Part shown: positions 2,829 to 38,258 of the stretch, one piece after another
Position numbering within the stretch: the stretch's first letter is position 1
How the letters are laid out: every line of letters begins with the position of its first letter
Sequence record: SRR20825006_369
Length of the DNA stretch: 39,214 nt
Direction: 5' to 3' (one strand)
Position numbers and translations under genes: made by a program
Notes under the pieces: generated by a model
Databases searched by the model: none
Told to the model about the DNA's origin: nothing
Seen by the model: the letters and a program-made list of their open reading frames with translations, nothing else

Positions 2829-2858
2829 ACTCGGGCCTATTCAGACAGTGTCAAAACG

Positions 2859-2881
2859 TATGGAAAATTAGAATTTCCATA
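2859..2881. promoter_or_regulatory. Perfect inverted repeat TATGGAAA-N7-TTTCCATA, candidate operator
   Basis: Seen directly in the AT-rich region upstream of the secretion operon. Confidence 0.4.
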
Positions 2882-3053
2882 AGAGTGAAACTTTAGATTC
2901 CGAAATAATCTCAAAGTTAAACAAAAACTTAATTCGGGCAGAGATGACAATCTAACGCGCTATTTTTAATCTTAAGAACATCCCTTTACGCGAATGTGTT
3001 CCGGTCTCTTCCTGCGTGGTGTCGTAGCCTGACGGAAACGCGTGGAGAATATC

Positions 3054-3608
3054 ATGAACATCCGACTTAGTGCCATAATTTTGGCGATTCCAACGCTTTC
3101 TGCGTGTGGACAGAGCTTGAGCCTGACCATGCAGGATCCGTACTGCATAGCCGATAAGGCAGGGAAATCAGTCGAAGACTCCTTCTTTGTCGTCGATGGC
3201 GAATACTATGTTTTGAGCGACACCTATGTCGCGTCGAATGGCAAAATGACACAATATCCGGACGAATGCCCAGTAACGAATTTCTACGTCGTGCCGGCGG
3301 TGCGCCTTTCCGATGGCAGCGTGCGGTCTACGCAAAGTGTTCCAAACAATATTCCAGCACCGGCTGGCACTCCAGAGATTGTTGCTGAGAGCGCAGAAGC
3401 AGGAACCGCACAGGCGTCCGAAGTGGTTTCTGGTGGGACAGTGGCGCAGAGTGCAAGTACCGGAAACGTGTCTGTATCTGAAGTGAGTATGGAAGATGCG
3501 CCCAATGACACTGGAAAGGACGGAGACGACGCAGCTGTGACGGCGGGCAGCATCACGATCCACCGTGATGGTAGCGTTACAACGCCCAATCTTGGGCGCG
3601 TAAAATGA
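3054..3608 (+). CDS. Putative lipoprotein, first gene of the CsgG/HfaB operon
   Basis: RBS GGAG, lipobox LSAC, two further Cys and a low-complexity C-terminal half. Overlaps the next gene by 4 nt. Confidence 0.75.
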   Translation: MNIRLSAIILAIPTLSACGQSLSLTMQDPYCIADKAGKSVEDSFFVVDGEYYVLSDTYVASNGKMTQYPDECPVTNFYVVPAVRLSDGSVRSTQSVPNNIPAPAGTPEIVAESAEAGTAQASEVVSGGTVAQSASTGNVSVSEVSMEDAPNDTGKDGDDAAVTAGSITIHRDGSVTTPNLGRVK

Positions 3609-4117
3609 AACAACTCGTTCTCGGCCTTTCTCTGCTTCCATGTCTCGCATGGGGCCAAACCTATAGTACGTCTGGACAGAATTGGTCGGGAAGCTATGCG
3701 TTTCCGAGCGCATCAGACCGTAGCCTCGTGTTGCAGCAAGCGCAGGTGATCAACGACGCCGAAAACCCGACGGCTGCGGCACAAACGAACTACTACATTA
3801 CAAACGATAACCGCACTGGCTACGTTGAGGTGACAACGGATGGTGATGTCACGACCGATTTGCAGATTGGTGACGAAATCGGCCAGCAGACCTATGCTGT
3901 TGGATCTCTAAACACCGGCACGACGGAGGTGTCGGTGGAGGGCGATGGCAACATCATTACCGCAGACAACACGGCCGACAACAGCGGCTGTATTGATGCG
4001 TCTATCTTGTCATCCTTGCAGACTCCTGAAGGCGACGCCGCAACGGATGTGTCGTCTCTTTCGGTCCTTGATCTTGCCGATGCGCTCGCTGCTTTTGCAG
4101 CGGGAAAATGTAATTGA
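3605..4117 (+). CDS. Secreted HfaA-like / curlin-like beta protein
   Basis: Sec signal ending AWG-Q. TYAVGSLNTGTTEVSVEGDGNIITADNTADNSG resembles the HfaA C-terminal strands. Lies directly upstream of the CsgG/HfaB gene. Confidence 0.7.
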   Translation: MKQLVLGLSLLPCLAWGQTYSTSGQNWSGSYAFPSASDRSLVLQQAQVINDAENPTAAAQTNYYITNDNRTGYVEVTTDGDVTTDLQIGDEIGQQTYAVGSLNTGTTEVSVEGDGNIITADNTADNSGCIDASILSSLQTPEGDAATDVSSLSVLDLADALAAFAAGKCN

Positions 4118-4136
4118 TCTTGTGTTTGGGGGCTAC

Positions 4137-5432
4137 GTGAGACCGTTTCCAGTCATCGCAAGTGTTGTGGCTCTCCTTTCAGGATGTGCCAGCCTTGGAC
4201 AGGCTGTGGCGCCAATGGATCAGGATGTATTCATGGTTGATGGGCCACCCGTCCGCCGTGTCGAGACTGCATATGACGACGCGCTTGCGTGCATTGGCAA
4301 CCGCGCACCGAGATCGCTGACCTTCGCCGTCGGTGCCATCAATGATGCGACCGGCAAAGAAAGCTATGCCGACGCAGGCAGCGGGAAAATGGTCACGCAG
4401 GGTGCAGGGGATATGATCCAGACCGCCCTGTTTAATGCAGGTGTGCAGGTCGTAAACCGGCGCGATCCGGCCATTGCGGCGACTGAGCACAACTGGGGTA
4501 TCCGAGATATTACGTCGATGAAGCCGGCGGATCTTTTCATCACGGGAAGTATCAACAGTCTCGATTTTATTCCAGGAGCCGGGGCGTCTGTGACCGTCTC
4601 GGGAGTTGGGCCGAAAGCGCGGCAGAACCGTTTGTTGGTGGGAATGGACCTGGCCATGACCAATGCGCTGACCGGGGAAATTGTCGCAAATATCGCAATT
4701 CAAAAACAACTCGTTGGCAAAGAAATTGGCTTTGCGATTGGTCGGTTCTTTGACACGAGCCTCGTTGATATTTCGGCAGGCGCAATGGAACGCGAAGCCA
4801 CCAATGCTGTGTTCCGGCAGATGCTGTACTACGGTGTATATCAGCTTCTTTTACAAGCAAGTGACGCGGCAGAAAGTGCTGGCGAATGCAATGCAAAGCT
4901 GACTGCGACAATTGCAGAAGACTTGGTCTGGGAAGATCCGGCTGGGCGCGCATCCTTGCGGGCAATTGCCTCAGAGGTAGAGGCGGCTCGTCCGCCTTCC
5001 GAACAAGAAGTCGCCGAGATGCGTGCAGAAATGACGACAGCCGCTCCGGTTGAGCTGTCCGCCGAGGCACGCAAACTTGCCAACAACGTTACGACACAGG
5101 CGGCACGCGCCATCTCGATGTTTGATACTGCCGTGTCGGCGAAAAATGCCCAGGCCGCGCAAACAGCCTTTGAGAAGGGCAAAGTCTACCTGTCCATTGC
5201 CATTCGCGATCTGCGCGCCGGGGCCAAGGTGGGTTTGACTGGACCCGTAGGCGATGCCGCCGCGACGATTGTCGAACAGGCGATCCGCGCAGGCTCAGCC
5301 GCCGAAATTGCGCTCGCAGTCAAAATTGCTCCGAAGGGTGAGGAAGAGGCTGTGATCGCGCCCGAAACGGCGACGGATCCCGCGTCACCGTCCAACCCGG
5401 CTAAACCATCAAACGTGGAGGGAAAGCCATGA
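4137..5432 (+). CDS. CsgG/HfaB-family outer-membrane lipoprotein secretion channel with an Ala-rich C-terminal extension
   Basis: Start set at GTG 4137, lipobox LSGC. FAVGAINDATGK, VTQGAGDMIQTAL, VQVVNRRD and ITGSINSLDF...VGMDL are CsgG/HfaB motifs. Confidence 0.88.
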   Translation: MRPFPVIASVVALLSGCASLGQAVAPMDQDVFMVDGPPVRRVETAYDDALACIGNRAPRSLTFAVGAINDATGKESYADAGSGKMVTQGAGDMIQTALFNAGVQVVNRRDPAIAATEHNWGIRDITSMKPADLFITGSINSLDFIPGAGASVTVSGVGPKARQNRLLVGMDLAMTNALTGEIVANIAIQKQLVGKEIGFAIGRFFDTSLVDISAGAMEREATNAVFRQMLYYGVYQLLLQASDAAESAGECNAKLTATIAEDLVWEDPAGRASLRAIASEVEAARPPSEQEVAEMRAEMTTAAPVELSAEARKLANNVTTQAARAISMFDTAVSAKNAQAAQTAFEKGKVYLSIAIRDLRAGAKVGLTGPVGDAAATIVEQAIRAGSAAEIALAVKIAPKGEEEAVIAPETATDPASPSNPAKPSNVEGKP

Positions 5433-5580
5433 TGCATCCTTCTACATCCAGTTTTCTTTGCGAGACCCGCAAAGAAAGTTCTGTGGTCATACACCGCAGC
5501 TCAAACGGGGCCCTCGAACATGCCCTATTTAAGGACTGCCTGTTCTCGAGGGAAGAACAGGCACAAACGAGGACATCACT

Positions 5581-6453
5581 ATGAAAAAGTTTCTTGCGAC
5601 CACCGCTGTGGTGCTGATCGCCACGACCGGCGCAGCGTCTGCACAATCCGTTCTGGAGCGCGTTTTGGGCTCGCTCGACGCGGCGACCACCACTGAACTC
5701 AACGGCACTTTCGCCAACATCGCCGAAAACATCGGTGGCAATGACGTCACTTATCTTAACGAGGCCGGCGTTGCCTTTACCGAAGCTGAATTCGAACTGC
5801 TGGTCGATGATGAGCTTGGCCAGATGCTCGACGATGGCTATGTTTACTACGACACGACCACTGACAGCTACTACACCAACGAAGGTTTGGGTTTTGAGCT
5901 CGGCTCGATCATCGAAGCCAAAGCTTATGCCGAAGCACAGATGCTTAACTCCGCTGGCTACACCCGTGAAGTTGGCCTTGGCGGCATTGTTGACGGTTCG
6001 ATCACCAACGTCATCGAAGGCGTGACCAGCGCTATTGCTGATGCAAGCCAAAGCGCGACCGCCGGTCTCGACACAGTTGCTTATGAATTCAACTTGCCGA
6101 CTTATGATCTTGGCGCGCTGTCCACAACCGCACTTGGCGCTGTGAACACCGGCGACATCACCCTCGGTGTGAACTCCACCGTGGATGACGCAAAAACCAC
6201 GTCGACACAGGCCGTGTCCTCCGTCATGGAACAGCTCGGTGGCTCTTCGGGCACCGGCGCGCTTGTGCTTAACATCGCATCCAACATGACCGGTGTGGAT
6301 GGTTCGATCTCCAACACGATGAACAACGTGAACGGTGCTCTCGCCTCTGCATCGACAACGGCACTTGGTGCGGTCAACACCGGCACAATCACATCCGGTG
6401 TGAATGCTGCTGTTCAGGGCATCGTCGGCACGTCCGGCCAGTCCGGCCTGTAA
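5581..6453 (+). CDS. Secreted two-repeat protein, candidate major fibre/amyloid subunit
   Basis: RBS GAGG and signal peptide ASA-Q. Two copies of NIAxN...VDGSI...STTALGAVNTGxIT. Rich in G/A/S/T/N, with no Cys, Trp or His. Confidence 0.85.
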   Translation: MKKFLATTAVVLIATTGAASAQSVLERVLGSLDAATTTELNGTFANIAENIGGNDVTYLNEAGVAFTEAEFELLVDDELGQMLDDGYVYYDTTTDSYYTNEGLGFELGSIIEAKAYAEAQMLNSAGYTREVGLGGIVDGSITNVIEGVTSAIADASQSATAGLDTVAYEFNLPTYDLGALSTTALGAVNTGDITLGVNSTVDDAKTTSTQAVSSVMEQLGGSSGTGALVLNIASNMTGVDGSISNTMNNVNGALASASTTALGAVNTGTITSGVNAAVQGIVGTSGQSGL

Positions 6454-6482
6454 GCTTTAGGCTTGTTCGCATTATAAGAATT

Positions 6483-6504
6483 GGGATGGCAGTCATGCCA
6501 TCCC
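6483..6504 (+). terminator. Stem-loop after the major subunit gene (terminator or mRNA stabiliser)
   Basis: GGGATGGCA-gtca-TGCCATCCC, 9-bp perfect stem without a clear U-tract. Confidence 0.55.
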
Positions 6505-6645
6505 TCCAAACTATCAGATGTGGCACAATGTTCGCCCAAAGGCAGGGCGTACCGCCGAGTTTGGTCTTGGGCATATAAGGCGTTCGAATACGTTTGGGTT
6601 GATCGAGATAGCCCTCATGAGACGCAGAGCGAAGGAGTTGAAATC

Positions 6646-7665
6646 TTGCATAGTTTTCGCAGCTTTGTCTCTCGTTGCTTGCACAGGATGTGTCGCGGTC
6701 TGTCGCGCCGCCTGAGCCACAGCCTACCCAAAGTTGCTTTGAAACGAAGCAGATACCCCTTTGAGAGGTTTCAAAACCTGTGCGTCATTGCGATCTGTGT
6801 CCTTTCAGGACTGTCGTATCCGTACCCTGCGTCAGCAGAGACTCGTCTTGAACGTATTTTTGCCGCTTTGGCTGAAACAGGGTTTGGTGCTGACGTCTTG
6901 TTTATGGTCAATGTGGCCGAAAACACGTCAAGTTTTATGAGCCAACCGGCACGTCTCAAATCCGGACAAACTGTCGTCATCGGATATGATAGCGTTGGTG
7001 CGCCCGTCATCGCGCAATCCGACGATTTTGGCGTGACTGTGACGGCGGCGCAGGCATTGGAGCTTGAGCGTGGTCTACCGCCTGGTTTCTATCCGACCGG
7101 CAGCGGGCTTTTTTCCATTCCCGCGGGTGCACAGCTGTCCCTGTACGAAGCGGACCGGGACGGGCAGGCGATTGCAACAGCGCGCGAACTTGTTTCGACG
7201 CGGATTGATGGCCAGATCTTGACGGTTATCGGACTTTCCCCAAGGTTTGCCGAATTTGGGGACCTGGCGTTGGTTGCAGGACAAAGCAATGCCTTGCGTG
7301 CCATCACTCAAATTGATGCACTTCAAACGACGGTACTTGGCGCGGTGAACAACGGGATCGCTGTCACAAACGTCGCTGCCAATTACGGTACGGATGTTTT
7401 GGTCCCAACGGATCTTATCGCCTCAAAAGTCTCGCGTGGTGCCAACATGAGCTATATGCAGGCGGCTACGGATCAGCTCGACGCGGTGCATCTGGCGCAA
7501 GTTGTCACGACGGGTCCCAGTGTTTTGATGAATTTGGCGTCGAATGATATGGATATAATCGGTAGCATCCGTCTGCGGGTGTCTGATCAATCGGGCGCAG
7601 CCCTCAAGGTTGTCACGACGGCAATCGGTGCTGTGAACAGCGGGATTATCTCGAATACGAACTAG
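6646..7665 (+). CDS. Secreted paralog of the 5581 protein, candidate minor subunit
   Basis: ASA-ETRLERIF, NVAEN, TTVLGAVNNG, NLASN, TTAIGAVNSG. Start uncertain: TTG 6646 follows AAGGAG; 6688 and 6739 are alternatives; the ORF opens at 6481. Confidence 0.8.
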   Translation: MHSFRSFVSRCLHRMCRGLSRRLSHSLPKVALKRSRYPFERFQNLCVIAICVLSGLSYPYPASAETRLERIFAALAETGFGADVLFMVNVAENTSSFMSQPARLKSGQTVVIGYDSVGAPVIAQSDDFGVTVTAAQALELERGLPPGFYPTGSGLFSIPAGAQLSLYEADRDGQAIATARELVSTRIDGQILTVIGLSPRFAEFGDLALVAGQSNALRAITQIDALQTTVLGAVNNGIAVTNVAANYGTDVLVPTDLIASKVSRGANMSYMQAATDQLDAVHLAQVVTTGPSVLMNLASNDMDIIGSIRLRVSDQSGAALKVVTTAIGAVNSGIISNTN

Positions 7666-7687
7666 GGCGAGTCTTCAGGCCGATTGG

Positions 7688-10375
7688 TTATAAACACTTT
7701 GACAATAGCAATTGTGCAAGCCCTTGTAGGCGCACAATTTCTGCTTTGCGGCAGCATTTTTCGATCTCACCCAAAAGGCGGCCGAGTTTCGGGTAACCAA
7801 GAAACAGCAAACTCCCCGCAACAAAGTGCGAAAATTGCGCAATCTCATCAAGGTCTTTTGCCCCCGGGTCATTTTGCAGCATGCCCCGTAGCATGTCTCC
7901 AAGTGTTTCCACCTCTGTTTTGGCGCGATGGGTCAGTTCGACCAAATTGGGATTTTCCTCAAAACTCGGGAGCGGATTGGAAAGTCGTTCGAACTCGAAC
8001 TCCTCTTGCTGCTCGACATCGTCCATCGCGTCGCGTTCTGAAATGACTTTTTCAATGTGCGACCGAAGCTGATGCATGGTGAACGGCTTGTGGAGAATAG
8101 AATCGATGCCGCTTTCAAACAGCTCAAGTGTCTCTTCCATCTTCATGCTCGCCTGCGCCGTCACGGCAATAATGCAGGCTTTCGAGGATCTTGACCCCAG
8201 TCGTATGATGGATGAGGCATCTAAGCCTGACATGTTCGGCATATTCAGATCGGTCAAGATAAGATCGTAGGCTGTCTCACAAGCCTTTTGAACCGCTTCA
8301 AACCCATCAATGGCGGTGTCCACATCATAGCCGATTTGTTCGGCCATTGCCTTGAGCAATGTTCTATTGGTGGGGTGATCTTCGACCAACAAGACATGTC
8401 CTTTTGGTGCGCCGGTATGTTTCACATCCTCGCCTGCGGTTGTGTCTGGGGCTGGCGTGCTATTTGGCGTCTGATCGGTGCGCCCAGACATTTTCCCCAA
8501 TGGGATATTCGCGGGCATGTCGTCTTCGGATTGTTCCTGTTGCGCGGAAGAGGGCACCCGGATCGCGTCATTCTGCTCATCGTGTACAAAAGAGGGGATC
8601 GTGAAACAAAACCGACTGCCACTTCCCAGAGTACTTTCCAATGTGATTGTCCCGCCCATGAATTCCACGGATCTCTGGACAATTCCGAGGCCTAGACCGG
8701 TGCCGGGCAAAACCGGTGCAACTTCGTCGGATAGAGAATAGAAATCTTCGAAGATGCGCGCTTGATCTGCCTGGCTTATGCCAATGCCCGTATCAATCAC
8801 CTCGATACGTGTTTCCCATGCACTATTTACCAACGAGTTTGTGCCGAGCACAGTGATCGAGCCAGCATTTGTAAACTTGATGGCATTGGAAATGAGGTTG
8901 TAGATCGCATTTGAAAACGCGCGCCGGTATCCGATGTTTTCATCCGGACCCCGCCAGTTGAGTGTCAGGGCGTTGCCCTTTGATTTGGCCAATGCCTCGA
9001 GCTGCTCACATATCTGCTGTACTGTGTTGCGAGGGTTATAAGGCTGCGGGGTGAGCTGAGATGACATGGCATCGTGCCGCGCAATGTCGAGAACATCGTC
9101 AATTTGCTCAAGAGCTGTTGCCGCGGCATCGCGTGATATCTGAATATATTCGCGACGTTTTACGGCTTCCGTCTCGGTTTCTGCGAGATCAAGAGCCGCG
9201 ACAACGCCATGCAGAGGCGTCCGCATTTCGTGACTCATCGTCGCGAGAAAACGGCTCTTTGCAGACGCATCACTGCGTGCGCGGGCCAACGCTGTGCGTG
9301 CTTTTAGGCGTGCATTCCATTCTTGAGAAGTGTCACGCACGAAGCCGATTAAGACCGGTTGCCCGTCCATTCCCGTCTCTCTTACGATGCTAAGAGATGC
9401 GGGAAATGTTTCTCCATTGAAGCGACGGGCCCTTACATTTGAACGATGTAAGGCGTTGTTGCCGCTTTCTTTGCAGGCAAACATGATGCGGAGTTGTTTT
9501 TCGAAAGGTGCCCAGCTTTTTTTGGGTGTCAGGTGCTTTAAAACGGATTGTCCATAGGCCTCTTTGCGTTGACATCCAAACATGGCTTCGGCAGCAGCAT
9601 TGAACTCTATGACTTTAAAATCACAGTCCATTACGATGATTGCATCGTGAGAGACCTCAAGTAGTTTTGCGAGATAGGATGACAATTTTTTTTGAGTGAG
9701 ATTGGTGGTTGCGATCCGCCTCAAAAGAAACACCACGGATATGAAGCTCAGGAGAAGTAGACCGATTAGAACAAGAGAATAAAAGAGATAGTTGTTCAAA
9801 GATGAATGCAGGACGCTGCGTCTCTCTTCTTGAGAGTCGATTGCCGACTGCAGAGCCGACAACGCAAAGATCCGGCTAAGCGTTGCGGCATATTCGATTA
9901 AATCGAAGATTGCTCGCACATCATCGACCGTTTTCAAACGCCCTGCATCTATTTCAATTGCAGCCTTGTCACGCAGTGTGGTCAATTCCGATAGGGCGTC
10001 ACGGGCATCTTGTTCGACGGGAAATGTTCGCAACCTTTGTGCAACTGTGTCCACGCGCGCATAAAAGATGTCGAAACGCGTCTCAATTTCGAGATGGGTC
10101 TCGTCGGATATCTGAGACCCGTCTTGCGTTTCCATTAAGGCTTGAGCAAGGGCTAGCTGAAGGCGATGCAGTTCCACTTCGACCTGAACGAAGTTCCAGG
10201 TTTCGCTGTCAGAGCGTGCAAAAGAAAAGGAATTAACTTTGCGGGACAAGTCAACGGATATGGTCAAGAGGATCAGCAGGACGAAGCTGAAAATCGTTAC
10301 TGAAACGTACATTTTCCGTCGTGTCAGGCGCCAATGCGGAGACACGTTCAGAAATTTCGGAATGTGGCGTTTCAT
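7688..10375 (-). CDS. Hybrid sensor histidine kinase (TM-periplasmic-TM, PAS, HisKA, HATPase, REC, Hpt-like C-terminus)
   Basis: MSHEMRTPLHG, NLISNAIKFT, DTGIGI, GTGLGL, LILTDLNMP and C-terminal SHFVAGS. Confidence 0.93.
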   Translation of the reverse strand: MKRHIPKFLNVSPHWRLTRRKMYVSVTIFSFVLLILLTISVDLSRKVNSFSFARSDSETWNFVQVEVELHRLQLALAQALMETQDGSQISDETHLEIETRFDIFYARVDTVAQRLRTFPVEQDARDALSELTTLRDKAAIEIDAGRLKTVDDVRAIFDLIEYAATLSRIFALSALQSAIDSQEERRSVLHSSLNNYLFYSLVLIGLLLLSFISVVFLLRRIATTNLTQKKLSSYLAKLLEVSHDAIIVMDCDFKVIEFNAAAEAMFGCQRKEAYGQSVLKHLTPKKSWAPFEKQLRIMFACKESGNNALHRSNVRARRFNGETFPASLSIVRETGMDGQPVLIGFVRDTSQEWNARLKARTALARARSDASAKSRFLATMSHEMRTPLHGVVAALDLAETETEAVKRREYIQISRDAAATALEQIDDVLDIARHDAMSSQLTPQPYNPRNTVQQICEQLEALAKSKGNALTLNWRGPDENIGYRRAFSNAIYNLISNAIKFTNAGSITVLGTNSLVNSAWETRIEVIDTGIGISQADQARIFEDFYSLSDEVAPVLPGTGLGLGIVQRSVEFMGGTITLESTLGSGSRFCFTIPSFVHDEQNDAIRVPSSAQQEQSEDDMPANIPLGKMSGRTDQTPNSTPAPDTTAGEDVKHTGAPKGHVLLVEDHPTNRTLLKAMAEQIGYDVDTAIDGFEAVQKACETAYDLILTDLNMPNMSGLDASSIIRLGSRSSKACIIAVTAQASMKMEETLELFESGIDSILHKPFTMHQLRSHIEKVISERDAMDDVEQQEEFEFERLSNPLPSFEENPNLVELTHRAKTEVETLGDMLRGMLQNDPGAKDLDEIAQFSHFVAGSLLFLGYPKLGRLLGEIEKCCRKAEIVRLQGLAQLLLSKCL

Positions 10376-10878
10376 TCTGACGTTAAAACCCTAATTTCAA
10401 CGAGTTGCCAGACGGCGGCTCCATACACAGGTTCTGTTTGATATTCTTTGCGTTTGTCGAAGGGATACATGATCCACAGAGGGCCTTTCTCCCGGAGAGA
10501 AAACGGCATCCCATCGATCCTGTTGGCAATGATTGGATAGGTGTCATCAATCAAAGCGGGGCTAATATCAACCTTGTAGTCATTGGCTCCAACGAACGTC
10601 ATTGAATTTTGTTCGTGGATTCCCACCATGGAAAGGACGCTGGTAAGAGAAGGGCCACTATAACTTGGACTCCCTTCTGTCCAAAGCGAAGATGTTTGGA
10701 AGGATTGCTGTTCCAACTGCAGAAGCATGTCGTCCGTAATCTCGAAACGTTCATCTGTCCCTTCTATAGAAATTGTCAGAAGCACATCCTGAGCACAGAG
10801 CATTTGCGGCGATAGCGCGAAACAACCTGCGAAAGCAATCATTTGGGCAGCTTTAAGAGTAAAACTGTGTGGGAACAT
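10372..10878 (-). CDS. Periplasmic molybdopterin-oxidoreductase-like accessory protein coupled to the kinase
   Basis: Signal peptide, then TSSLWT, YSGPSL, ANDY, REKGPLWIMYP and VWQL motifs. Overlaps the kinase by 4 nt. Start set after RBS AAGGA. Confidence 0.8.
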   Translation of the reverse strand: MFPHSFTLKAAQMIAFAGCFALSPQMLCAQDVLLTISIEGTDERFEITDDMLLQLEQQSFQTSSLWTEGSPSYSGPSLTSVLSMVGIHEQNSMTFVGANDYKVDISPALIDDTYPIIANRIDGMPFSLREKGPLWIMYPFDKRKEYQTEPVYGAAVWQLVEIRVLTSE

Positions 10879-11083
10879 GGTCATTTCCTTGAGATAAAAC
10901 GCTTTTAGGGAGATTTTCACCAAAAAAGTTTTTTATACACTGCGCAAAAGTAAAATAGCATCATCTTTAGTTTCCACGTTATTCCACCAAGGATTTATTT
11001 GCTCTTAATAGTTTCTGCATATGGCGGCGGCGCTAAAATTCATACAAATAGTAAAAAATTGTATATCCTATAGAGAAAATCCT

Positions 11084-11755
11084 ATGCACAAACCTCAAAG
11101 GCAGTCGAACACAGAGATGCAACAGCGCATGGTTTCCGTCCTTATTGCCGACGATCATAAGCTGATCTCAGAGGCTTTGAAGATTATTCTGGTTGAAGAG
11201 GGAGATTTTTCCGTCGAAACGAGCGTCTCATTGCAAAGCACCCTCGACGTTCTGCGCGCACACCCAAAGTCTTTTGATGTTGTGATGCTTGATATCTCTA
11301 TGCCGGGAATGGAAGGTTTGCGATCTGTAAAGCAGGTCGTAGATGCCACCCATGAGGGATCAGTTGTCATTTTTTCTGGAACGGCTGACGATGACTTCGT
11401 CTGGCAGGCAATTGAGATCGGGGCAAAGGGATTTATCTCCAAAGGGCAACCTTTTCGCAGTTTCGCCGCGACACTCAGATTGATCGCCGATGGCAACGAG
11501 TTTGTCCCACTGTCATTGTCGAGAAGTGTTAAAAACGCAACCAAAGGCGCAGACGGACCCGATGAGCAAGAGCGGCGCATTCTCAAGCTGGTTGCAGAAG
11601 GAAAGACAAACAAGGAAATTGCGTTCGAGCTGAATTCGAGCGAGGTCGCAATTAAAATGAAAATGCGGTCGATATGTACGAAACTAGATGCCAAGAACCG
11701 CGCACACGCTGCTATCCTTGCGCAAAGACATGGGCTCATAACGATTGAAACGTGA
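11084..11755 (+). CDS. NarL/FixJ-family response regulator (REC + LuxR HTH)
   Basis: VLIADDH, VMLDISMPG, GKTNKEIA...NRAHAA. Start 11084 or 11117. Confidence 0.92.
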   Translation: MHKPQRQSNTEMQQRMVSVLIADDHKLISEALKIILVEEGDFSVETSVSLQSTLDVLRAHPKSFDVVMLDISMPGMEGLRSVKQVVDATHEGSVVIFSGTADDDFVWQAIEIGAKGFISKGQPFRSFAATLRLIADGNEFVPLSLSRSVKNATKGADGPDEQERRILKLVAEGKTNKEIAFELNSSEVAIKMKMRSICTKLDAKNRAHAAILAQRHGLITIET

Positions 11756-30661: not shown

Positions 30662-33600
30662 TCAATAATCCTTTTCAAAATAAACCCCAACGCCGGTGTC
30701 GCCGGTAGAGGAGACGGACCCTTTGACGGTCACCTTGTCGGTGGCGTCAAGGTTGAGGTTGATCACCGATTTGCCATCACTGTCGATGGTCACATCCGTG
30801 TAGATTTTATCCGAAATATATTTGCCGAGTTTCAACGAGCTGCCGCCCTCTTCGGAGGTTTGCAGGTCAAGATCGTCGAGGCCAAAACTGTTGCGGATCG
30901 AACCGACAAGCCCACCACCGCCGCCGGTTAAGGTCGCCACAGCCGAGGCCATTTGCGCCGCTTGCAGCGCGGAAATTTGGCTCAGACCGCGACCGAACAA
31001 CAGTTGAGAAAGGATTTCTTCTTGCGGCAAGGTGGGGGAGGAGCTGAGCGTCAAGGCCAGCGCGCTCAGCGGCCCTTCGGTGACCAGTTGCACGTTCAAG
31101 TCAGGCGTCTGCGTTTCCGCGACAAGCCGCACCACGGGGTCCAACTCGCCCTGCAAGGTCAAAGTGCCCTCTTTCATCACAATGCGTTTACCCAAAAGCG
31201 ACAAGCGCCCGCGGATCAGCGAGAATTGCCCCACCGGGATCACATCCTGCGTCGTGCCGCGCAGGCGCAGCCGCCCGCCGAGTTCCGCATCCAAGCCACG
31301 ACCGCGAATGAAAATCTGGTTCGGGGCGGCGATAGTGACATTGAGGCCATAGGAAGCCCCCGGTCCGCCATTGCTATCGGTGATCACAAGTCCCGCGCGC
31401 TTGCGGGTGGTGAGCACAGCGCCGGTTTGGCCGGTGTGGGTGATCTCGGGGATGTCGCCGCTACCGCCAAGACCAGAGGCGGACACAGTGATGTCGGTGC
31501 GGCCCAATGTGAGATCGCCCGCGATGGTAGCCCCCCCAGACAGCGGACCAGTGATGGCCAAATTGCCATTCAAAGAAGTGCTGTAGAGTGTCGGGTCCAC
31601 CAAGGTCAAACCATTGAAAGCCATCGTCACATCGGCGGGAACTGCGCCGGTGAGGCCAATTTGACCAGAGGCAGAGATGCCGCCGCCGGTGTCGGCATTG
31701 GTGACCACGTCGATTTGGGCGCGTTCGCCCGAAAGTGTGATCGTGCCACGCTCCACCGTCAAAGCCAGTCCTGCGTCTGAGACCACCACTCGGGCGCCGG
31801 GGGTGACTTGAACTTGTCCCGACAGCGACGAGAGGGCGAGCGGGCCGTTGAGTGCGAGGTCAAAGCCAGCGTTGCCTTGGGTTAGTGCGGCGGTGGTGAA
31901 ACGGTTGGACAGGCCCAAAGGGGCGGTGCCGGTCAGCGACAGGTTGGCTCGGCTCGCGTCTTGGGCGAGGGTACCGGTGACACGCGCAGTCGATCCGCCG
32001 GGGCCGGTCATATTGGCCTCGGTTTGCCACGGCGCTGTGACGCTCGCGCGGGAGACATCGGCGGCAAGGGTCAATGGTCCGGAAAGGCCAAAACCGAGGC
32101 GCGCCACGTCATCGAGGCGGGCGGAGAGCGTCAGCGCCCCGGCCTCAGACGACAGCGTGCCCTTGGCGGAGGCGGTTACGGCCCCCGTCGTCATATCCGC
32201 CGCGCGCAGGATCAGCCCGGTTTCGTCGCGTTTGGCAGAGAGGCTCACCGTGCTGGAGCCATTGGTCAGCGCGTCCACTTGCGCAATGCCAAAGCGCAGA
32301 TTGGTGCCTTTGGCCTCGGCGGTCAGATCGAACTTCCCACTCAGAGGCGCGTAGCTGCCCGAGCCTGTTGCCTGAACCGCCCCCGCAAGGTCAAGGCCGG
32401 ACAGGCGGGCAAATCGTGCCAGACGCGGGGTGTCGAGGCGCATGTCGCCAGTGAATTCAAGCCCCGCGTCAAGCCCGGCCAGCCGACCTTGGACCGCGAC
32501 GGTGGTCGCGCCGGTTTTGAGTTCGACTGTCTCGAAAACGATGTCCTGCCCCTCTTGCCATGTCAGTTGGGTCAGCAGGCTGGGATTTGCGCCAATGGCG
32601 TCTTGAAGGGCGGGATCATCAGAGACCAGGCCGATCACGGTGGCGTCAATCTTGGCGCTCACCGCGCCCAATGTGGTCAGGCCATTGTTATCCGTCAATC
32701 GCGAGATGGTGCCGCCCGCATTGATCGCCGCTTTGCCAAGGCTCAACCCGTCCTGCGTATAGCCATCGACATCAATCAGCGCGGTCCAACCGTCGCCTTG
32801 TTCGGCATCGTAATTGGCAATGATCAGGGCTTTATCGACCATGCTGCGCGCAGAGCCAAAAGGCAGCAGCGTCGGGCGGCCGTCAGGGCTTTTGAGCGAC
32901 CCGGAGAGGGCGAAGGAGTGTGGCAGGCCATCGGCGCCAATCTTGGCCGCACCGACCATCGAGACTGCTTGGGTAGAGAGGGTGAATTGCTCAAGCTCAA
33001 ACCCGCCCGCAGGGAAGGATTGGCCACGCGCTTGTAGTGTTGAGGAGGAGCCAAAGAACCGCGCATATTCGGCGCTGAACAACGGGGTGAGATCGCCGGA
33101 GAGATCAGCCGTAAACGCCCGTGGGGCAGGGGCGTCCGGTGCGTTTGGGTCGGCTTCGGCTTTGAGGGCCACTGTGCCGGTGAGGCGGTCTTTTCCCTGC
33201 GTTGCCAAGGCGATATCGGCGGTGAAATCATCCAAAGGACCCGCGCCCTTGGCCGTCAGAGACAGCTCAGGCGCACCGGGTAGGTTGGCAAGCGTGGAGA
33301 TCAGGCCGCCCGCGCCTTCCGTGAGGGCCAGATCAAGATCCAACACCTCGGTTGTACCATCAAAGGATACACCTACGGTGAAAGCGCCTTCTGCTGCATC
33401 CAGACGTTGAATGCCCAACGTCGCGGCACCCGAACCACCGGCCAAATTGGCGCTGCCAGCGAGGCTCAGATCCACCGCTTCGCCCAGTTTCAACACCGGG
33501 GCTCCAAGATGGACACGCTTGGCCTCAATTGTGCCGATATTGATCGACACGGGCAAATCCGGCAAGGAAAAGGGTGTGGCTTCGGGCGCGGGGAGCGCGG

Positions 33601-33970
33601 TCGTGGCCTCTGCCACGGGCAGGCGGTCAAACAGGATTTCACCCGCCGTGATGCGGTTGATCTCGACCCGACCGGAAAAAAGCGCAGCCCGGCTCCAGTC
33701 CAGCTCGACATCGCGCAGGGTGAACCACACGCCAGTGTCATCGGCGATGGTCAACGCGTCGAGCGTGGCCTTGGAGGACAACAGGCCTTTGAAGCCTTCG
33801 ATGCGAATATCGCGGCCCGCACCCGACAGGTTGTCTTCCAAAAAGCCAACAATCACAGAGCGGTCCCGGGCGGTTTGTGCCGTGTCTGTTTGTGCTGTGT
33901 CGGGGCTGTCCTGCGCCATCAGCGTCAGAGGGATGCAGATGGCGGTCATGACCGGAAGAAATTTGTTCAA
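30662..33970 (-). CDS. tamB: Translocation and assembly module protein TamB
   Basis: 1102 aa, IFIRGRGLDAELGG, DUF490-type C-terminus ending GVYFEKDY; downstream of tamA. Confidence 0.93.
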   Translation of the reverse strand: MNKFLPVMTAICIPLTLMAQDSPDTAQTDTAQTARDRSVIVGFLEDNLSGAGRDIRIEGFKGLLSSKATLDALTIADDTGVWFTLRDVELDWSRAALFSGRVEINRITAGEILFDRLPVAEATTALPAPEATPFSLPDLPVSINIGTIEAKRVHLGAPVLKLGEAVDLSLAGSANLAGGSGAATLGIQRLDAAEGAFTVGVSFDGTTEVLDLDLALTEGAGGLISTLANLPGAPELSLTAKGAGPLDDFTADIALATQGKDRLTGTVALKAEADPNAPDAPAPRAFTADLSGDLTPLFSAEYARFFGSSSTLQARGQSFPAGGFELEQFTLSTQAVSMVGAAKIGADGLPHSFALSGSLKSPDGRPTLLPFGSARSMVDKALIIANYDAEQGDGWTALIDVDGYTQDGLSLGKAAINAGGTISRLTDNNGLTTLGAVSAKIDATVIGLVSDDPALQDAIGANPSLLTQLTWQEGQDIVFETVELKTGATTVAVQGRLAGLDAGLEFTGDMRLDTPRLARFARLSGLDLAGAVQATGSGSYAPLSGKFDLTAEAKGTNLRFGIAQVDALTNGSSTVSLSAKRDETGLILRAADMTTGAVTASAKGTLSSEAGALTLSARLDDVARLGFGLSGPLTLAADVSRASVTAPWQTEANMTGPGGSTARVTGTLAQDASRANLSLTGTAPLGLSNRFTTAALTQGNAGFDLALNGPLALSSLSGQVQVTPGARVVVSDAGLALTVERGTITLSGERAQIDVVTNADTGGGISASGQIGLTGAVPADVTMAFNGLTLVDPTLYSTSLNGNLAITGPLSGGATIAGDLTLGRTDITVSASGLGGSGDIPEITHTGQTGAVLTTRKRAGLVITDSNGGPGASYGLNVTIAAPNQIFIRGRGLDAELGGRLRLRGTTQDVIPVGQFSLIRGRLSLLGKRIVMKEGTLTLQGELDPVVRLVAETQTPDLNVQLVTEGPLSALALTLSSSPTLPQEEILSQLLFGRGLSQISALQAAQMASAVATLTGGGGGLVGSIRNSFGLDDLDLQTSEEGGSSLKLGKYISDKIYTDVTIDSDGKSVINLNLDATDKVTVKGSVSSTGDTGVGVYFEKDY

Positions 33971-35742
33971 AACGCTTGCCCTATGCCGATGTAAATTTGG
34001 ATGCCGTCACCCGTGTCGCCCGTCACAGGTCCGGCAAGGTCAAGGCGGATCGGGCCAAAGCCGGTGTCATAACGCAGCCCAAGGCCTGCGCCCGAATGCC
34101 ATTCGGCGGCGTCGCCCGGCAAAGCCGATGTGCCGATGCCGCCGAGGTCATAAAAGCCCACGACGGAAATTTTACCCGTGACCAAGGCGCGCAATTCGGT
34201 TGAGAGGCCAAGGAAGCTTGAGCCGCCTGTGGCATTGCCGCCGCCCAAATCGACGTCGAGGGATTGGTATGGTTGCCCGCGTACGGTGCCGCCGCCGCCG
34301 GAGTAAAACAGCAGATCGGGGGGCACCTCGGTATAGTCCGCCCCGGAGATGGACCCCAGTTGCAGCCGCCCAGCCAAGGTAAACCGATCATCGTCCCCAA
34401 AAGAGAGATAGCCGCGACCATCGGCAGAGATGCGCACGCCGGAGGCCGATCCGCTCACGCCCACAAAGGGCAGGATGTCGGCGTTGAAATAGGTGCCGGA
34501 TTTCGGATTGAGCGCATTGTCACGCCCATCGCGGCTGCCGTTGATCGGGAAAATCACATGCGAAAAAGAGCGCGAGCCAAGCGAGTCCTCGACCTCGGAA
34601 TAGCGGTAGCCGAAGCCAAAGGAAAACGTCGAGTTCTTAGAGGTTTCCACATCGGCGCTTATGGTGAATTCGCCACGGTCCGAAAGGTAATCCGGTTCGT
34701 CCAGATGTTCGATTTCAGCGCCAAGGACGAGGGTTGTTTTGCGGGTAATCGTGGCGGGGCGGCGGTAGGTTGCGCCAAGGGTGTAATCCACGCCTGTGGT
34801 GCCGCCGAGACCGCCGATTTCGGCGTCAAAGCGCAATCTGTCGGCGTTTTTGGTGAGGTTGCGATGCATCCAGTAGGCCGAAATCGTGCCGCCTTCGAGC
34901 GATGACAGTTCCGCGCCAAAGCCAAGGCGACGCTTTTTTTCGTCCACCAGCGTTGCGGTGATGTCCAGGGTTCCATCCGCATTCAGAGCGTCGGCCTCTC
35001 GCAGGGTGATCGAGCGGAAAGTGCCGGTTTTTTGCAGGCGCCGGGTCACCAGATCAAGCGTGTCGGGATCATAGGCGCTCCCCGTTGGCAAGTTGGCGAT
35101 ACGCGACAGGCGATCTTCGCGCACGCGGGTGTCGCCTGCAAATTTCAGGCGGCCAAAGGCAACGGCGGGGCCGGGATCGATGGCGAGGGCGACATCGAGT
35201 GTTTTGCTGTTGTGATCTGCGATAATTTGTTGATCTGACAGGGCCGCTTTGGCGTGCGATGCCTGCCGCCATGCCTCGATGGCCACGTCTTTTGCCTCGC
35301 CAACCAGACCGGATTTGGCCACCGCGCCGGATGTGAAATCTTCGGGCAATTGCGTGTCGGGGGCGAGCGGGGTAACGGTGGCGCTGCCAAATCGGAACCT
35401 TGGGCCGGGGGTGACGGTGATCACCACTGCGTCGATCGTCGATGGCAATGAAATCAGGGACATATCCGCCCCTTCGCGCCCGTCTACGCGGATTGAAATA
35501 CTGGGCCCATAATAGCCCTCTCGGTAGAGCGCACCGATCAGAGCGCGGTAATCGGACTGAACGGCGGCGATGATTTCTTCGGGGGTTGTGACGTCGTTTT
35601 TGGCGGCTTCCAAGATGGCAGAGGCGCTTTCCAGCCGGGTTTTGACCTCGCCCTCGGCCGTGGTTTCAAGCGTGGCCTCAAAGGCATTCGAGGTCCCTGC
35701 GTAAAGCAAGGCTACCGCCACAAACATAATCCCTCTAAGCAC
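33967..35742 (-). CDS. tamA: Translocation and assembly module protein TamA (Omp85 family)
   Basis: POTRA region, FYSGGGGTVRG, GLGLRYDTGFGPIRLD and terminal IGQAF. Confidence 0.93.
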   Translation of the reverse strand: MLRGIMFVAVALLYAGTSNAFEATLETTAEGEVKTRLESASAILEAAKNDVTTPEEIIAAVQSDYRALIGALYREGYYGPSISIRVDGREGADMSLISLPSTIDAVVITVTPGPRFRFGSATVTPLAPDTQLPEDFTSGAVAKSGLVGEAKDVAIEAWRQASHAKAALSDQQIIADHNSKTLDVALAIDPGPAVAFGRLKFAGDTRVREDRLSRIANLPTGSAYDPDTLDLVTRRLQKTGTFRSITLREADALNADGTLDITATLVDEKKRRLGFGAELSSLEGGTISAYWMHRNLTKNADRLRFDAEIGGLGGTTGVDYTLGATYRRPATITRKTTLVLGAEIEHLDEPDYLSDRGEFTISADVETSKNSTFSFGFGYRYSEVEDSLGSRSFSHVIFPINGSRDGRDNALNPKSGTYFNADILPFVGVSGSASGVRISADGRGYLSFGDDDRFTLAGRLQLGSISGADYTEVPPDLLFYSGGGGTVRGQPYQSLDVDLGGGNATGGSSFLGLSTELRALVTGKISVVGFYDLGGIGTSALPGDAAEWHSGAGLGLRYDTGFGPIRLDLAGPVTGDTGDGIQIYIGIGQAF

Positions 35743-36977: not shown

Positions 36978-37042
36978 CATGGGGGTTGCGTTCTTTTGTG
37001 TGTGGGATACGCTGCTGGTGATGTTATTTGATTGGACACGAT

Positions 37043-37675
37043 ATGGCTTTACCGTATGTCACAAGTGCTGCAAACATTCATAAGGTTATTGCCGCAATAA
37101 AAAAGGCTGCCGTACCAAACAAAATTACTGGTGAGTTTGTGAAAACAACCTTCCAAATTAAGGGAGGTGGTGGGGACCAAATAACCAGCTTTATAAAAAA
37201 AATAGGTCTTGTGGATAGCAGTGGAGTGCCCACCGATCTTTACAATGATTTGCGCAGTTCATCTACCTCCGGTCATGCAATCGCGTCAGTGATGAGAAAT
37301 GCCTACAAGCCCCTTTTTGACCGAGACGTAAATGCACATGCACTATCCGATAATGCGCTTGAGGAGCTTATTGTACAGGAAACGGGCGATGCAGCGAACT
37401 CATCGGCCGTAAAACTAACCTTACGATGTTTTAAGGCTCTTAGGGAATACGCTGATTTCGATGCAGATGATTCATCAAATGAGATAGCAACCATCGATTC
37501 CAAGCCACAAACATCAGGTAGCCTAGATGCAAGCGAGGTAAAACGATCGTCAGCAAATCAATTGAAAATTGGATATACGATAAATCTTAATTTGCCGGCA
37601 ACAAGTGACCCCGCAGTTTTTAACGCAATTTTCAAGAGTTTAAAAGAACATTTGCTGAGTAACGACGATGGTTAA
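37043..37675 (+). CDS. DUF5343-family protein
   Basis: LPY...IKKAAVP.K...IGLVDSSGVPTDLY...AYKPLF and C-terminal YTINLNLPATSDPAVFNAIFKSLKEHL. AT-rich. Confidence 0.75.
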   Translation: MALPYVTSAANIHKVIAAIKKAAVPNKITGEFVKTTFQIKGGGGDQITSFIKKIGLVDSSGVPTDLYNDLRSSSTSGHAIASVMRNAYKPLFDRDVNAHALSDNALEELIVQETGDAANSSAVKLTLRCFKALREYADFDADDSSNEIATIDSKPQTSGSLDASEVKRSSANQLKIGYTINLNLPATSDPAVFNAIFKSLKEHLLSNDDG

Positions 37676-38258
37676 GCGGCCAGACAGCCTATTAAAAGCT
37701 CTTGGAATGAGCGGCTTGCAAATCGTTGACGATATCAAGGATATTGAAAAGCGATTTGGCGTCGATTTTGGCGTTGAGGCTAAGGAAAAGGCCAGTCGCG
37801 CTTATGAGGAATATGAACAGTTTTCTTCAAGGGTTCGTGCCCAAGCATCTGAAATGTCAGAGTATTATGAAATATTTTTCTGTTTGGAGAATACGATTAG
37901 AGGGCTAATTGAAGAAATTTTACGAGACCAGTATGGAGCTAATTGGTGGTCTGATGCGAATGTCTCTCCCCAAATTAGAGAAGACGTCAAAAAGAGAAAA
38001 GACACCGAAATCGATACGGCAATTGGCGCTCGATCAGAAAAGGAAATTGATTACACGACCTTTGGTGAGCTCACAGAGTTAATCGTGCAAAATTGGGAGT
38101 TTTTTGAGCCAATCTTTACCTCCAAAAATGCAGTTTACCGTGTTTTAAAGGAACTCAACATCTTGAGGGGGCCAATTGCACATTGCTGTACAATTGACTC
38201 CCATGAAAGACAACGATTGCTTTTTGCAGTAAAGAATTGGTTTCGGATAATTTCCTAA
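37668..38258 (+). CDS. Swt1-like HEPN-domain protein (putative RNase)
   Basis: ENTIR...YGANWW, DYTTFGELTELI..NW..F and the HEPN Rx4H motif RGPIAH. Overlaps the upstream gene by 8 nt. Confidence 0.82.
   Translation: MVKRPDSLLKALGMSGLQIVDDIKDIEKRFGVDFGVEAKEKASRAYEEYEQFSSRVRAQASEMSEYYEIFFCLENTIRGLIEEILRDQYGANWWSDANVSPQIREDVKKRKDTEIDTAIGARSEKEIDYTTFGELTELIVQNWEFFEPIFTSKNAVYRVLKELNILRGPIAHCCTIDSHERQRLLFAVKNWFRIIS

Follow-up and report, generated by a model that had tools for sequence, protein, structure and literature searches.

Four adjacent genes on the + strand of SRR20825006_369, a 39,214-nucleotide stretch of DNA given as one strand and referred to here as the window, form a conserved operon of the order B-C-D-(sometimes a second D)-E. 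With modest confidence, we read this operon as encoding a CsgG/HfaB-type secretion system whose substrates are a new family that forms a surface polymer or fiber with a plug-in display site; the system would work like curli or the holdfast-anchor (Hfa) system, with substrates that belong to neither family. Gene B (positions 3605 to 4117) encodes a secreted protein of 170 amino acids (aa) that has conserved cysteines and occupies the position of HfaA. Its signal peptide was recognized by reading the sequence, and its conserved motifs are GQNWSG.WGF and T.AVGS(L/M)NTG. Gene C (4122 to 5432, with GTG 4122 and GTG 4137 as candidate starts) encodes a CsgG/HfaB-like outer membrane lipoprotein, the presumed secretion channel, with the lipobox LLSGC and a C-terminal extension of ~170 aa. 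Gene D (5581 to 6453) encodes a 290-aa secreted protein, the presumed major subunit, while E (6646 to 7665) encodes a paralog of D whose insert is conserved and which is presumably the minor subunit.

Evidence for the operon comes from 40 loci fetched from named genomes of many Rhodobacterales genera. In 27 of these (the core loci), D is immediately preceded by C, and B is present in 26 of the 27, which makes it a core gene as well; the other fetched loci comprise 3 tiny contigs and 10 orphan D genes accompanied by neither B nor C. At least two D/E paralogs occur in 20 of the 27 core loci. Seven core loci have one paralog, and in five of these the contig ends within ~1 kb of D. A small lipoprotein-like open reading frame (ORF) upstream of B, designated A (3054 to 3608 on the + strand, ends approximate; signal peptide ending in LSAC), is not a core gene: a homolog adjoins the operon in just two of the 27 core loci (L043 and L050). 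None of the products of A, B, D, and E matched a Pfam or NCBIfam family.

As judged by profile alignment, the paralogy of D and E extends along the entire proteins, mature N terminus included: a D-family alignment of 65 sequences (A1) and an E-family alignment (A2) match at hhalign 99.9% (E value of 2.4e-33) over 244 columns, from the signal peptide through the C terminus. A preliminary description of this DNA had claimed two copies of a three-block repeat in both proteins, and all six blocks were located where it had placed them in each. In D, copy 1 consists of NIAEN (aa 46 to 50), IVDGSITN (aa 136 to 143), and TTALGAVNTG (aa 182 to 191), the last two spanning positions 5986 to 6153, and copy 2 (positions 6271 to 6384) consists of NIASN (aa 231 to 235), VDGSISN (aa 239 to 245), and TTALGAVNTG (aa 259 to 268). 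The blocks of E, numbered from a TTG at 6646, are NVAEN (aa 89 to 93), RIDGQILT (aa 186 to 193), and TTVLGAVNNG (aa 228 to 237) in copy 1 and NLASN (aa 296 to 300), IIGSIRL (aa 304 to 310), and TTAIGAVNSG (aa 324 to 333) in copy 2. For the second and third blocks (b and c), the repeat in D exceeds chance, with D-family aa 133 to 200 matching aa 226 to 290 at hhalign 98.6% (E value of 1.2e-15, 41 columns, 63% identity); the NIAEN/NIASN pair by itself was not significant (hhalign 0.4%). Copy 1 of D is interrupted twice, by a large insert and by ~26 aa between GSITN and TTALGAVNTG, and E has an extra 24-aa insertion following block 1c. Outside the large insert, the D core is composed chiefly of G (15%), T (14%), A (13%), S (12%), V (10%), and N (8%), with 8% charged residues, 2% aromatic residues, and no cysteine.

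The matching N termini that the same description had pointed out are also real, since an S-x-LERVL start of the mature protein is kept in both families and the paralogy reaches this end. In D the mature protein begins with QSVLERVLGSL, a predicted amphipathic helix (5644 to 5676), and in E it begins at 6838 (ETRLERIF). Residues Q22 to L29 and G42 to N50 of D are invariant in 65 of the 65 sequences of A1. The ORF of E from 6481 is over-long, and the likely start, judged from the letters, is TTG 6646, which has GAAGGAG before it and coincides with the start of the E homolog P0121. We also considered whether B might be a minimal D/E-type protein and rejected this as unproven, the likeness consisting of just a 17-column motif match with hhalign 1.9% against D.

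We asked how the large insert of D (aa 54 to 133, positions 5740 to 5979) varies relative to the blocks around it. This predicted independently folding domain stands out by its entropy, its predicted local distance difference test (pLDDT) values, and a break in nucleotide similarity, and its composition (E 12%, D 9%, Y 10%) is acidic and Tyr-rich, as had been claimed. Column entropy in the D-family alignment is 0.01 to 0.2 bits in the blocks versus ~2.1 to 2.7 bits over aa 61 to 130. The DNA of the window is 95 to 97% identical to that of Celeribacter baekdonensis DSM 27375 (locus L043) over 2845 to 5738 and 6592 to 11515, with no nucleotide similarity over 5738 to 5979, coinciding with the D insert. 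The nearest genome, G001, which served as a stand-in for the source genome in genome-wide family searches, shows the same break at the D insert between flanks that are 95 to 97% identical, and contigs from three public runs have 310 other letters in place of 5660 to 5992.

A comparison of all 7260 pairs of 121 D sequences gave a mean identity of 76% in the core and 25% in the insert (r = 0.29). In 35 pairs, core identity was at least 95% yet the insert was below 35% identical, and in 40 pairs the core was below 80% identical yet the insert was at least 60%, reaching 84%. Inserts have therefore moved between backbones, and a mosaic, cassette-like exchange of the D insert between strains or backbones is well supported by these sequence comparisons. 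Insert length ranges from 3 to 146 residues across natural forms. P0032, P0037, and P0049 are natural D variants of 210 to 227 aa with 3 to 6 residues between NIAENIGG and GVDGSIT; therefore, the D core exists without any insert.

The earlier proposal of conserved blocks with hypervariable inserts in both proteins thus stands for D, on the grounds of entropy, allele replacement, and mosaicism, and fails for E. The insert of E (6925 to 7200), a beta-rich domain between NVAEN and RIDGQILT with the pattern G.xVVIGYD ... YP.GS ... LSLY, is conserved within the E family in alignments of 26 and 36 sequences and is therefore not swappable in E. Many D inserts open with the loosely conserved motif TVY.D..G..(I/L)T.AEY.A. 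In the D homolog P0116, the insert matches Pfam PF24243, a phage tail tip domain, in two stretches at 30.4 bits; across all 65 members of A1, PF24243 was found in only one, and the D protein of the window had no Pfam match.

Assignment of C to the CsgG family comes from a Pfam match (PF03783, E value of 5e-9, 36.2 bits against a cutoff of 20.8). Its best NCBIfam match is HfaB (NF037935) at 93.6 bits and an E value of 1.1e-26, below the equivalog cutoff of 300, while a true HfaB in genome G029 scores 385.8 bits. The ortholog of C is the only CsgG-family gene in G001. As in curli, the gene for a CsgG-family lipoprotein channel accompanies those for Sec-dependent, Gly/Asn/Ser/Thr-rich substrates, a major and a minor paralog are found together, and the N-terminal segment of the mature subunit is conserved. 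Unlike in curli, B, D, and E are devoid of curlin repeats, CsgF was not detected in the stand-in genome, D has just two repeat units with a large globular insert within the first of them, and C is nearer to HfaB than to E. coli CsgG.

An alternative is that the operon is a divergent Hfa system. B, D, and E would then act as anchors that fasten a polar polysaccharide adhesin to the cell envelope, in the manner of HfaA and HfaD in Caulobacter, and no free-standing fiber would be made. The order of a small secreted protein, a channel, and a larger secreted protein is shared between B-C-D in the window and hfaA-hfaB-hfaD of G029 (locus L003), and the core composition of D resembles that of HfaD. 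In a language-model feature space, the annotated clusters nearest to D carry the Pfam label HfaD (PF27277) at 0.83 to 0.85, which lies under the 0.9 level and serves as a lead only. HfaA and HfaD, moreover, are described as needing HfaB for surface localization and as forming multimers resistant to sodium dodecyl sulfate (10.1101/2022.07.20.500906). Nevertheless, C falls short of the HfaB equivalog cutoff, and neither D nor E has detectable homology to HfaD, nor B to HfaA, with hhalign values of at most 17%. According to the precomputed Pfam labels of the collection, PF27277 is present on 119 of 120 listed HfaD homologs versus 0 of 120 listed D homologs and 0 of 25 E homologs. A buried anchor would not be expected to have a hypervariable, horizontally exchanged outward domain like the one proposed for D, and the patchy, island-like distribution of the locus described below also differs from Hfa. 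We therefore regard a divergent Hfa system as unlikely and retain the reading of a new substrate family.

Fap of Pseudomonas offers a parallel of architecture. PMC6173800 describes FapC as having conserved repeats linked by larger variable regions, perhaps domains outside the fibril core, and names FapF, not CsgG, as the Fap channel. The combination of repeats and a variable region in D parallels this arrangement, as does the presence of a major and a minor paralog (FapC and FapB), but Pfam scans revealed no sequence relation between Fap and the window proteins. Flagellin-type filament subunits have conserved assembly termini and a variable, outward, independently folded, recombining middle domain, with allelic mosaicism. 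D likewise has conserved N- and C-terminal parts, a variable middle domain predicted to fold independently, and allelic mosaicism, but it carries no flagellin Pfam domain and its presumed secretion route differs.

We also examined names that might link the family to known filaments. The UniRef name "Flagellin," carried by the D relatives P0005 and P0009, was set aside, since no flagellin family matched D or P0005 at an E value of ≤1. Another candidate was Dshi_0598 of Dinoroseobacter shibae, which is presumably a namesake of the Myxococcus C-signal CsgA and not a curlin. Dshi_0598 is called a CsgA homologue and engineered as the endogenous "CsgA" in PMC12281610, yet the supplementary table of the same paper gives "SDR family oxidoreductase" for this gene; the paper does not concern the D/E family, and none of the motifs GAVNTG, LERVL, and NIAEN occurs in its supplementary files.

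AlphaFold2 monomer models were obtained for D from a 65-sequence alignment and for mature E from 36 sequences. Mean pLDDT for D was 64, with only aa 55 to 132 modeled confidently (73 to 95) and both the helix at aa 22 to 31 and the beta-rich core at 45 to 65. For mature E, mean pLDDT was 49.5, with only the insert (~aa 40 to 92) above 90 and the core at 30 to 45. Strands are drawn in the conserved core of D and E at pLDDT values of 30 to 65 only. This low confidence is compatible with a core that folds only on assembly, because such a part would look so in a monomer model, but it is no proof. That the conserved blocks form a stacking cross-beta core, as the preliminary description had proposed, remains a hypothesis; the monomer models are uninformative for the core and speak neither for nor against it.

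A different possibility is that D and E do not polymerize, being either monomeric secreted or surface proteins (adhesins, decoys, or phage receptor masks) that use the channel or components of a two-dimensional surface layer. Each protein has just two repeat units, neither monomer model gave a stacked core, and S-layer and receptor proteins just as typically have an exposed hypervariable domain; the "Flagellin" label on homologs shows merely that a filament-like pattern was named automatically. Against this, the N-terminal 30 and C-terminal 110 residues of D are much more strongly conserved than a secretion signal alone would require, the core is unfolded as a monomer in two independent models, and the co-occurrence of a major and a minor paralog in 20 of the 27 core loci is like that of known fiber systems. 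We consider it quite improbable that D and E act as monomers or as a layer.

The S-x-LERVL helix might serve as an export tag directing the subunit to the channel, in the way that CsgA is targeted to CsgG via its N22 peptide (PMC6173800). The motif sits directly at the signal peptidase site in D and E, the helix is invariant in D, and S-x-LERVL is retained in plasmid-borne and orphan D copies. But B, also a presumed substrate, has no such N terminus, the invariance runs on into the repeat core, across its NGTFANIAEN segment, and the helix could equally be an interface for assembly between subunits. A role as an export tag is thus possible, though we find it doubtful.

Several results weigh against the new-substrate reading. 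The fiber, the secretion, and the polymerization of D, E, and B are predictions from genes and models, and the conserved cysteines of B, if oxidized, may fail to fit through a narrow channel. The curlin repeat (PF07012) had no match at an E value of ≤1 in B, D, or E and none in G001, while an E. coli control matched; CsgF (PF10614) likewise had no match in G001 with its E. coli control matching, and CsgE was not searched for. Two repeat units in D are far below the number in curli-type solenoids. Profiles of HfaD (28 and 120 sequences) against D, E, and D plus E gave hhalign 17% (over the signal peptide only), 0.1%, and ≤0.5%, and the 120-sequence profile against A1, A2, and A3 gave ≤0.5%. The B family against an HfaA alignment gave hhalign 2.9%, with an hmmsearch score of -1.8 bits for HfaA and B and a pairwise BLASTP E value of 0.031 over just 48 aa, and hmmsearch of B, D, and E against HfaA and HfaD reached at most 2.6 bits.

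Structure adds to these points. The conserved core of D and E stays at low confidence in both monomer models, and no solved structure resembles either model in Foldseek, VIA-align, or PDB sequence searches. Specifically, Foldseek of the D model against PDB returned no matches at an E value of ≤0.001, the E model had no fold match when compared by VIA-align with 48,161 chains (best Z of 2.7), and PDB sequence searches with the A1 and A2 profiles yielded nothing under an E value of 1.5. Rows for Wza/OPX in the VIA-align output for E were dismissed as not meaningful (Z of 2.0 to 2.5). In favor of the reading, an RNA library, run X2, has contigs covering the conserved ends of D (5' and 3') with a word depth of ~5000 to 11500, while depths were 215 for an allele-specific D insert contig, 124 for the A-to-C contig, 60 for E, and 12 to 14 for the neighboring kinase gene; these are contig depths, which are unfit to rank genes and may sum several strains, so that they give a weak hint of expression only.

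D has 668 relatives at an E value of ≤0.001 among 7999 candidates scored, from Celeribacter, Phaeobacter, Nioella, Pseudotabrizicola, Pseudorhodobacter, and others, and a word-indexed search returned 25 relatives of E. A merged D and E profile searched against 1.84 billion representatives recovered only 283 clusters at an E value of ≤0.001, 204 at 1e-10, and 117 at 1e-30. Where D relatives are named, all are called "hypothetical protein," apart from the UniRef name noted above. Pfam searches of 30 long members of the family found no real domains and one low-complexity match only, and the family is not described in the full-text literature searched. Among genomes, it is rare and patchy, occurring in 4 of 201 of the taxonomic family and 3 of 33 of the genus. 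In the window, the region from 2 to 24 kb is a low-G+C island of 46 to 56% G+C with 60 to 66% on either side.

D genes also occur apart from the operon. Orphan D genes and a core locus are present in the same genome in Sinisalibacter lacisalsi, Zhengella sp., Yoonia sp. 67-2, and Tropicibacter alexandrii, and three of nine orphan D loci share coiled-coil neighbors and also relaxase-like and helix-turn-helix (HTH) neighbors, the latter two being typical of plasmids. A 4470-bp contig of Tropicibacter alexandrii (L074, NZ_RCTZ02000045.1) combines a D gene of 335 aa with Rep-like, HTH, and relaxase-like ORFs, and its name states a coverage of 9036. This contig is probably a small high-copy mobilizable plasmid carrying a D-family gene. 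Pieces of it, 100% identical, were seen as tiny contigs (L073, L078, L079, and L080) in assemblies of Blastococcus, Thalassococcus, Alcanivorax, and Geodermatophilus, most likely as a result of cross-contamination.

Downstream of E and convergent to the operon lies a module of three genes: a hybrid histidine kinase with PAS, HisKA, HATPase, receiver, and Hpt domains by Pfam (7688 to 10375, - strand), a family-less 183-aa exported protein without a Pfam match that is cotranscribed with the kinase (10372 to 10923, - strand), and a LuxR-type response regulator with Pfam Response_reg and GerE domains (11021 to 11755, + strand). The module is a recurrent neighbor, found beside the operon in 7 fetched loci. 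In G016, another species of the same genus, homologs of its genes (29 to 37% identity) lie beside a CsgG-like locus of another kind, which encodes different secreted proteins (L009:1232-4793).

Between D and E, a GC-rich hairpin with a 9-bp stem (6483 to 6504, + strand) lies 30 nucleotides past the D stop codon; an 85-nucleotide fold has a free energy of -30.6 kcal/mol (z of -3.6), and no U-tract is found on the + strand. High-depth contigs of run X2 end at 6477. A promoter and terminator scan of the window gave counts at chance level. In C. baekdonensis DSM 27375, the interval between D and E is 2 kb longer (L043:7833-9878). It contains a 529-aa TPR and sulfotransferase-like ORF with the motif PRSGTSL, and E is preceded there by the fused N-terminal part of another E-type gene. 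At the corresponding place in the window (6437 to 6645), only a remnant of that part survives, within the over-long ORF from 6481, and contigs of run X4 carry the long form of the intergenic region. Elsewhere in the window are an ImuB-like Y-family polymerase with an adjacent ORF that is ImuA-like by position and has no Pfam match (1 to 2059), a short ORF at the edge of the low-G+C island resembling a transposase or integrase fragment by eye, again with no Pfam match (2436 to 2828), TamB with an Omp85-family (TamA-like) protein (30662 to 35742), and a DUF5343 and HEPN (Swt1-like) gene pair (37028 to 38258).

Taking these observations together, we propose that the B-C-D-E operon serves a CsgG-dependent (type VIII, curli/Hfa-like) secretion system. 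Sec would export D and E, and probably B as well, all of which have signal peptides in their sequences, and these proteins would then pass unfolded through the outer membrane lipoprotein channel C, a passage we infer because the genes are strictly linked. The two-repeat core, rich in Gly, Thr, Ala, Ser, Val, and Asn, and the invariant N-terminal helix of D may mediate assembly of subunits into a fiber or surface polymer on the cell. The D insert between blocks 1a and 1b would fold independently and be displayed outward at a natural plug-in position that may be empty, short, or filled with up to ~146 aa, its content being swapped when the conserved sequences on either side recombine. E, whose insert is conserved, could be a minor subunit with a fixed task as nucleator, tip adhesin, or anchor, and additional D genes, whether elsewhere in the genome or on small mobilizable plasmids, might provide alternatives to the major subunit. 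Expression is probably controlled by the neighboring module of kinase, 183-aa protein, and LuxR regulator.

In its most specific form, this proposal would make D the subunit of a new CsgG-secreted fiber whose two-repeat, non-curlin core folds on polymerization, with exchangeable globular domains, spare genes on plasmids, and E as a fixed nucleator or tip, a version that we put forward tentatively and at less than even confidence. If it is true, the operon would represent a natural surface display and antigenic variation system of marine Rhodobacterales. To our knowledge, CsgG-type secretion is known for two substrate sets, the curlins and the Hfa proteins of Caulobacter. A third, unrelated substrate family would broaden the known export range of the CsgG-type channel, and roseobacters, which are major colonizers of marine surfaces, would gain an undescribed surface structure. 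Because its insert site naturally tolerates 3 to ~146 residues, the D subunit is also a candidate scaffold for the display of foreign domains in marine bacteria. Finally, the cassette-like variation of D points to strong selection at the cell surface, whether by phages, grazers, or hosts.

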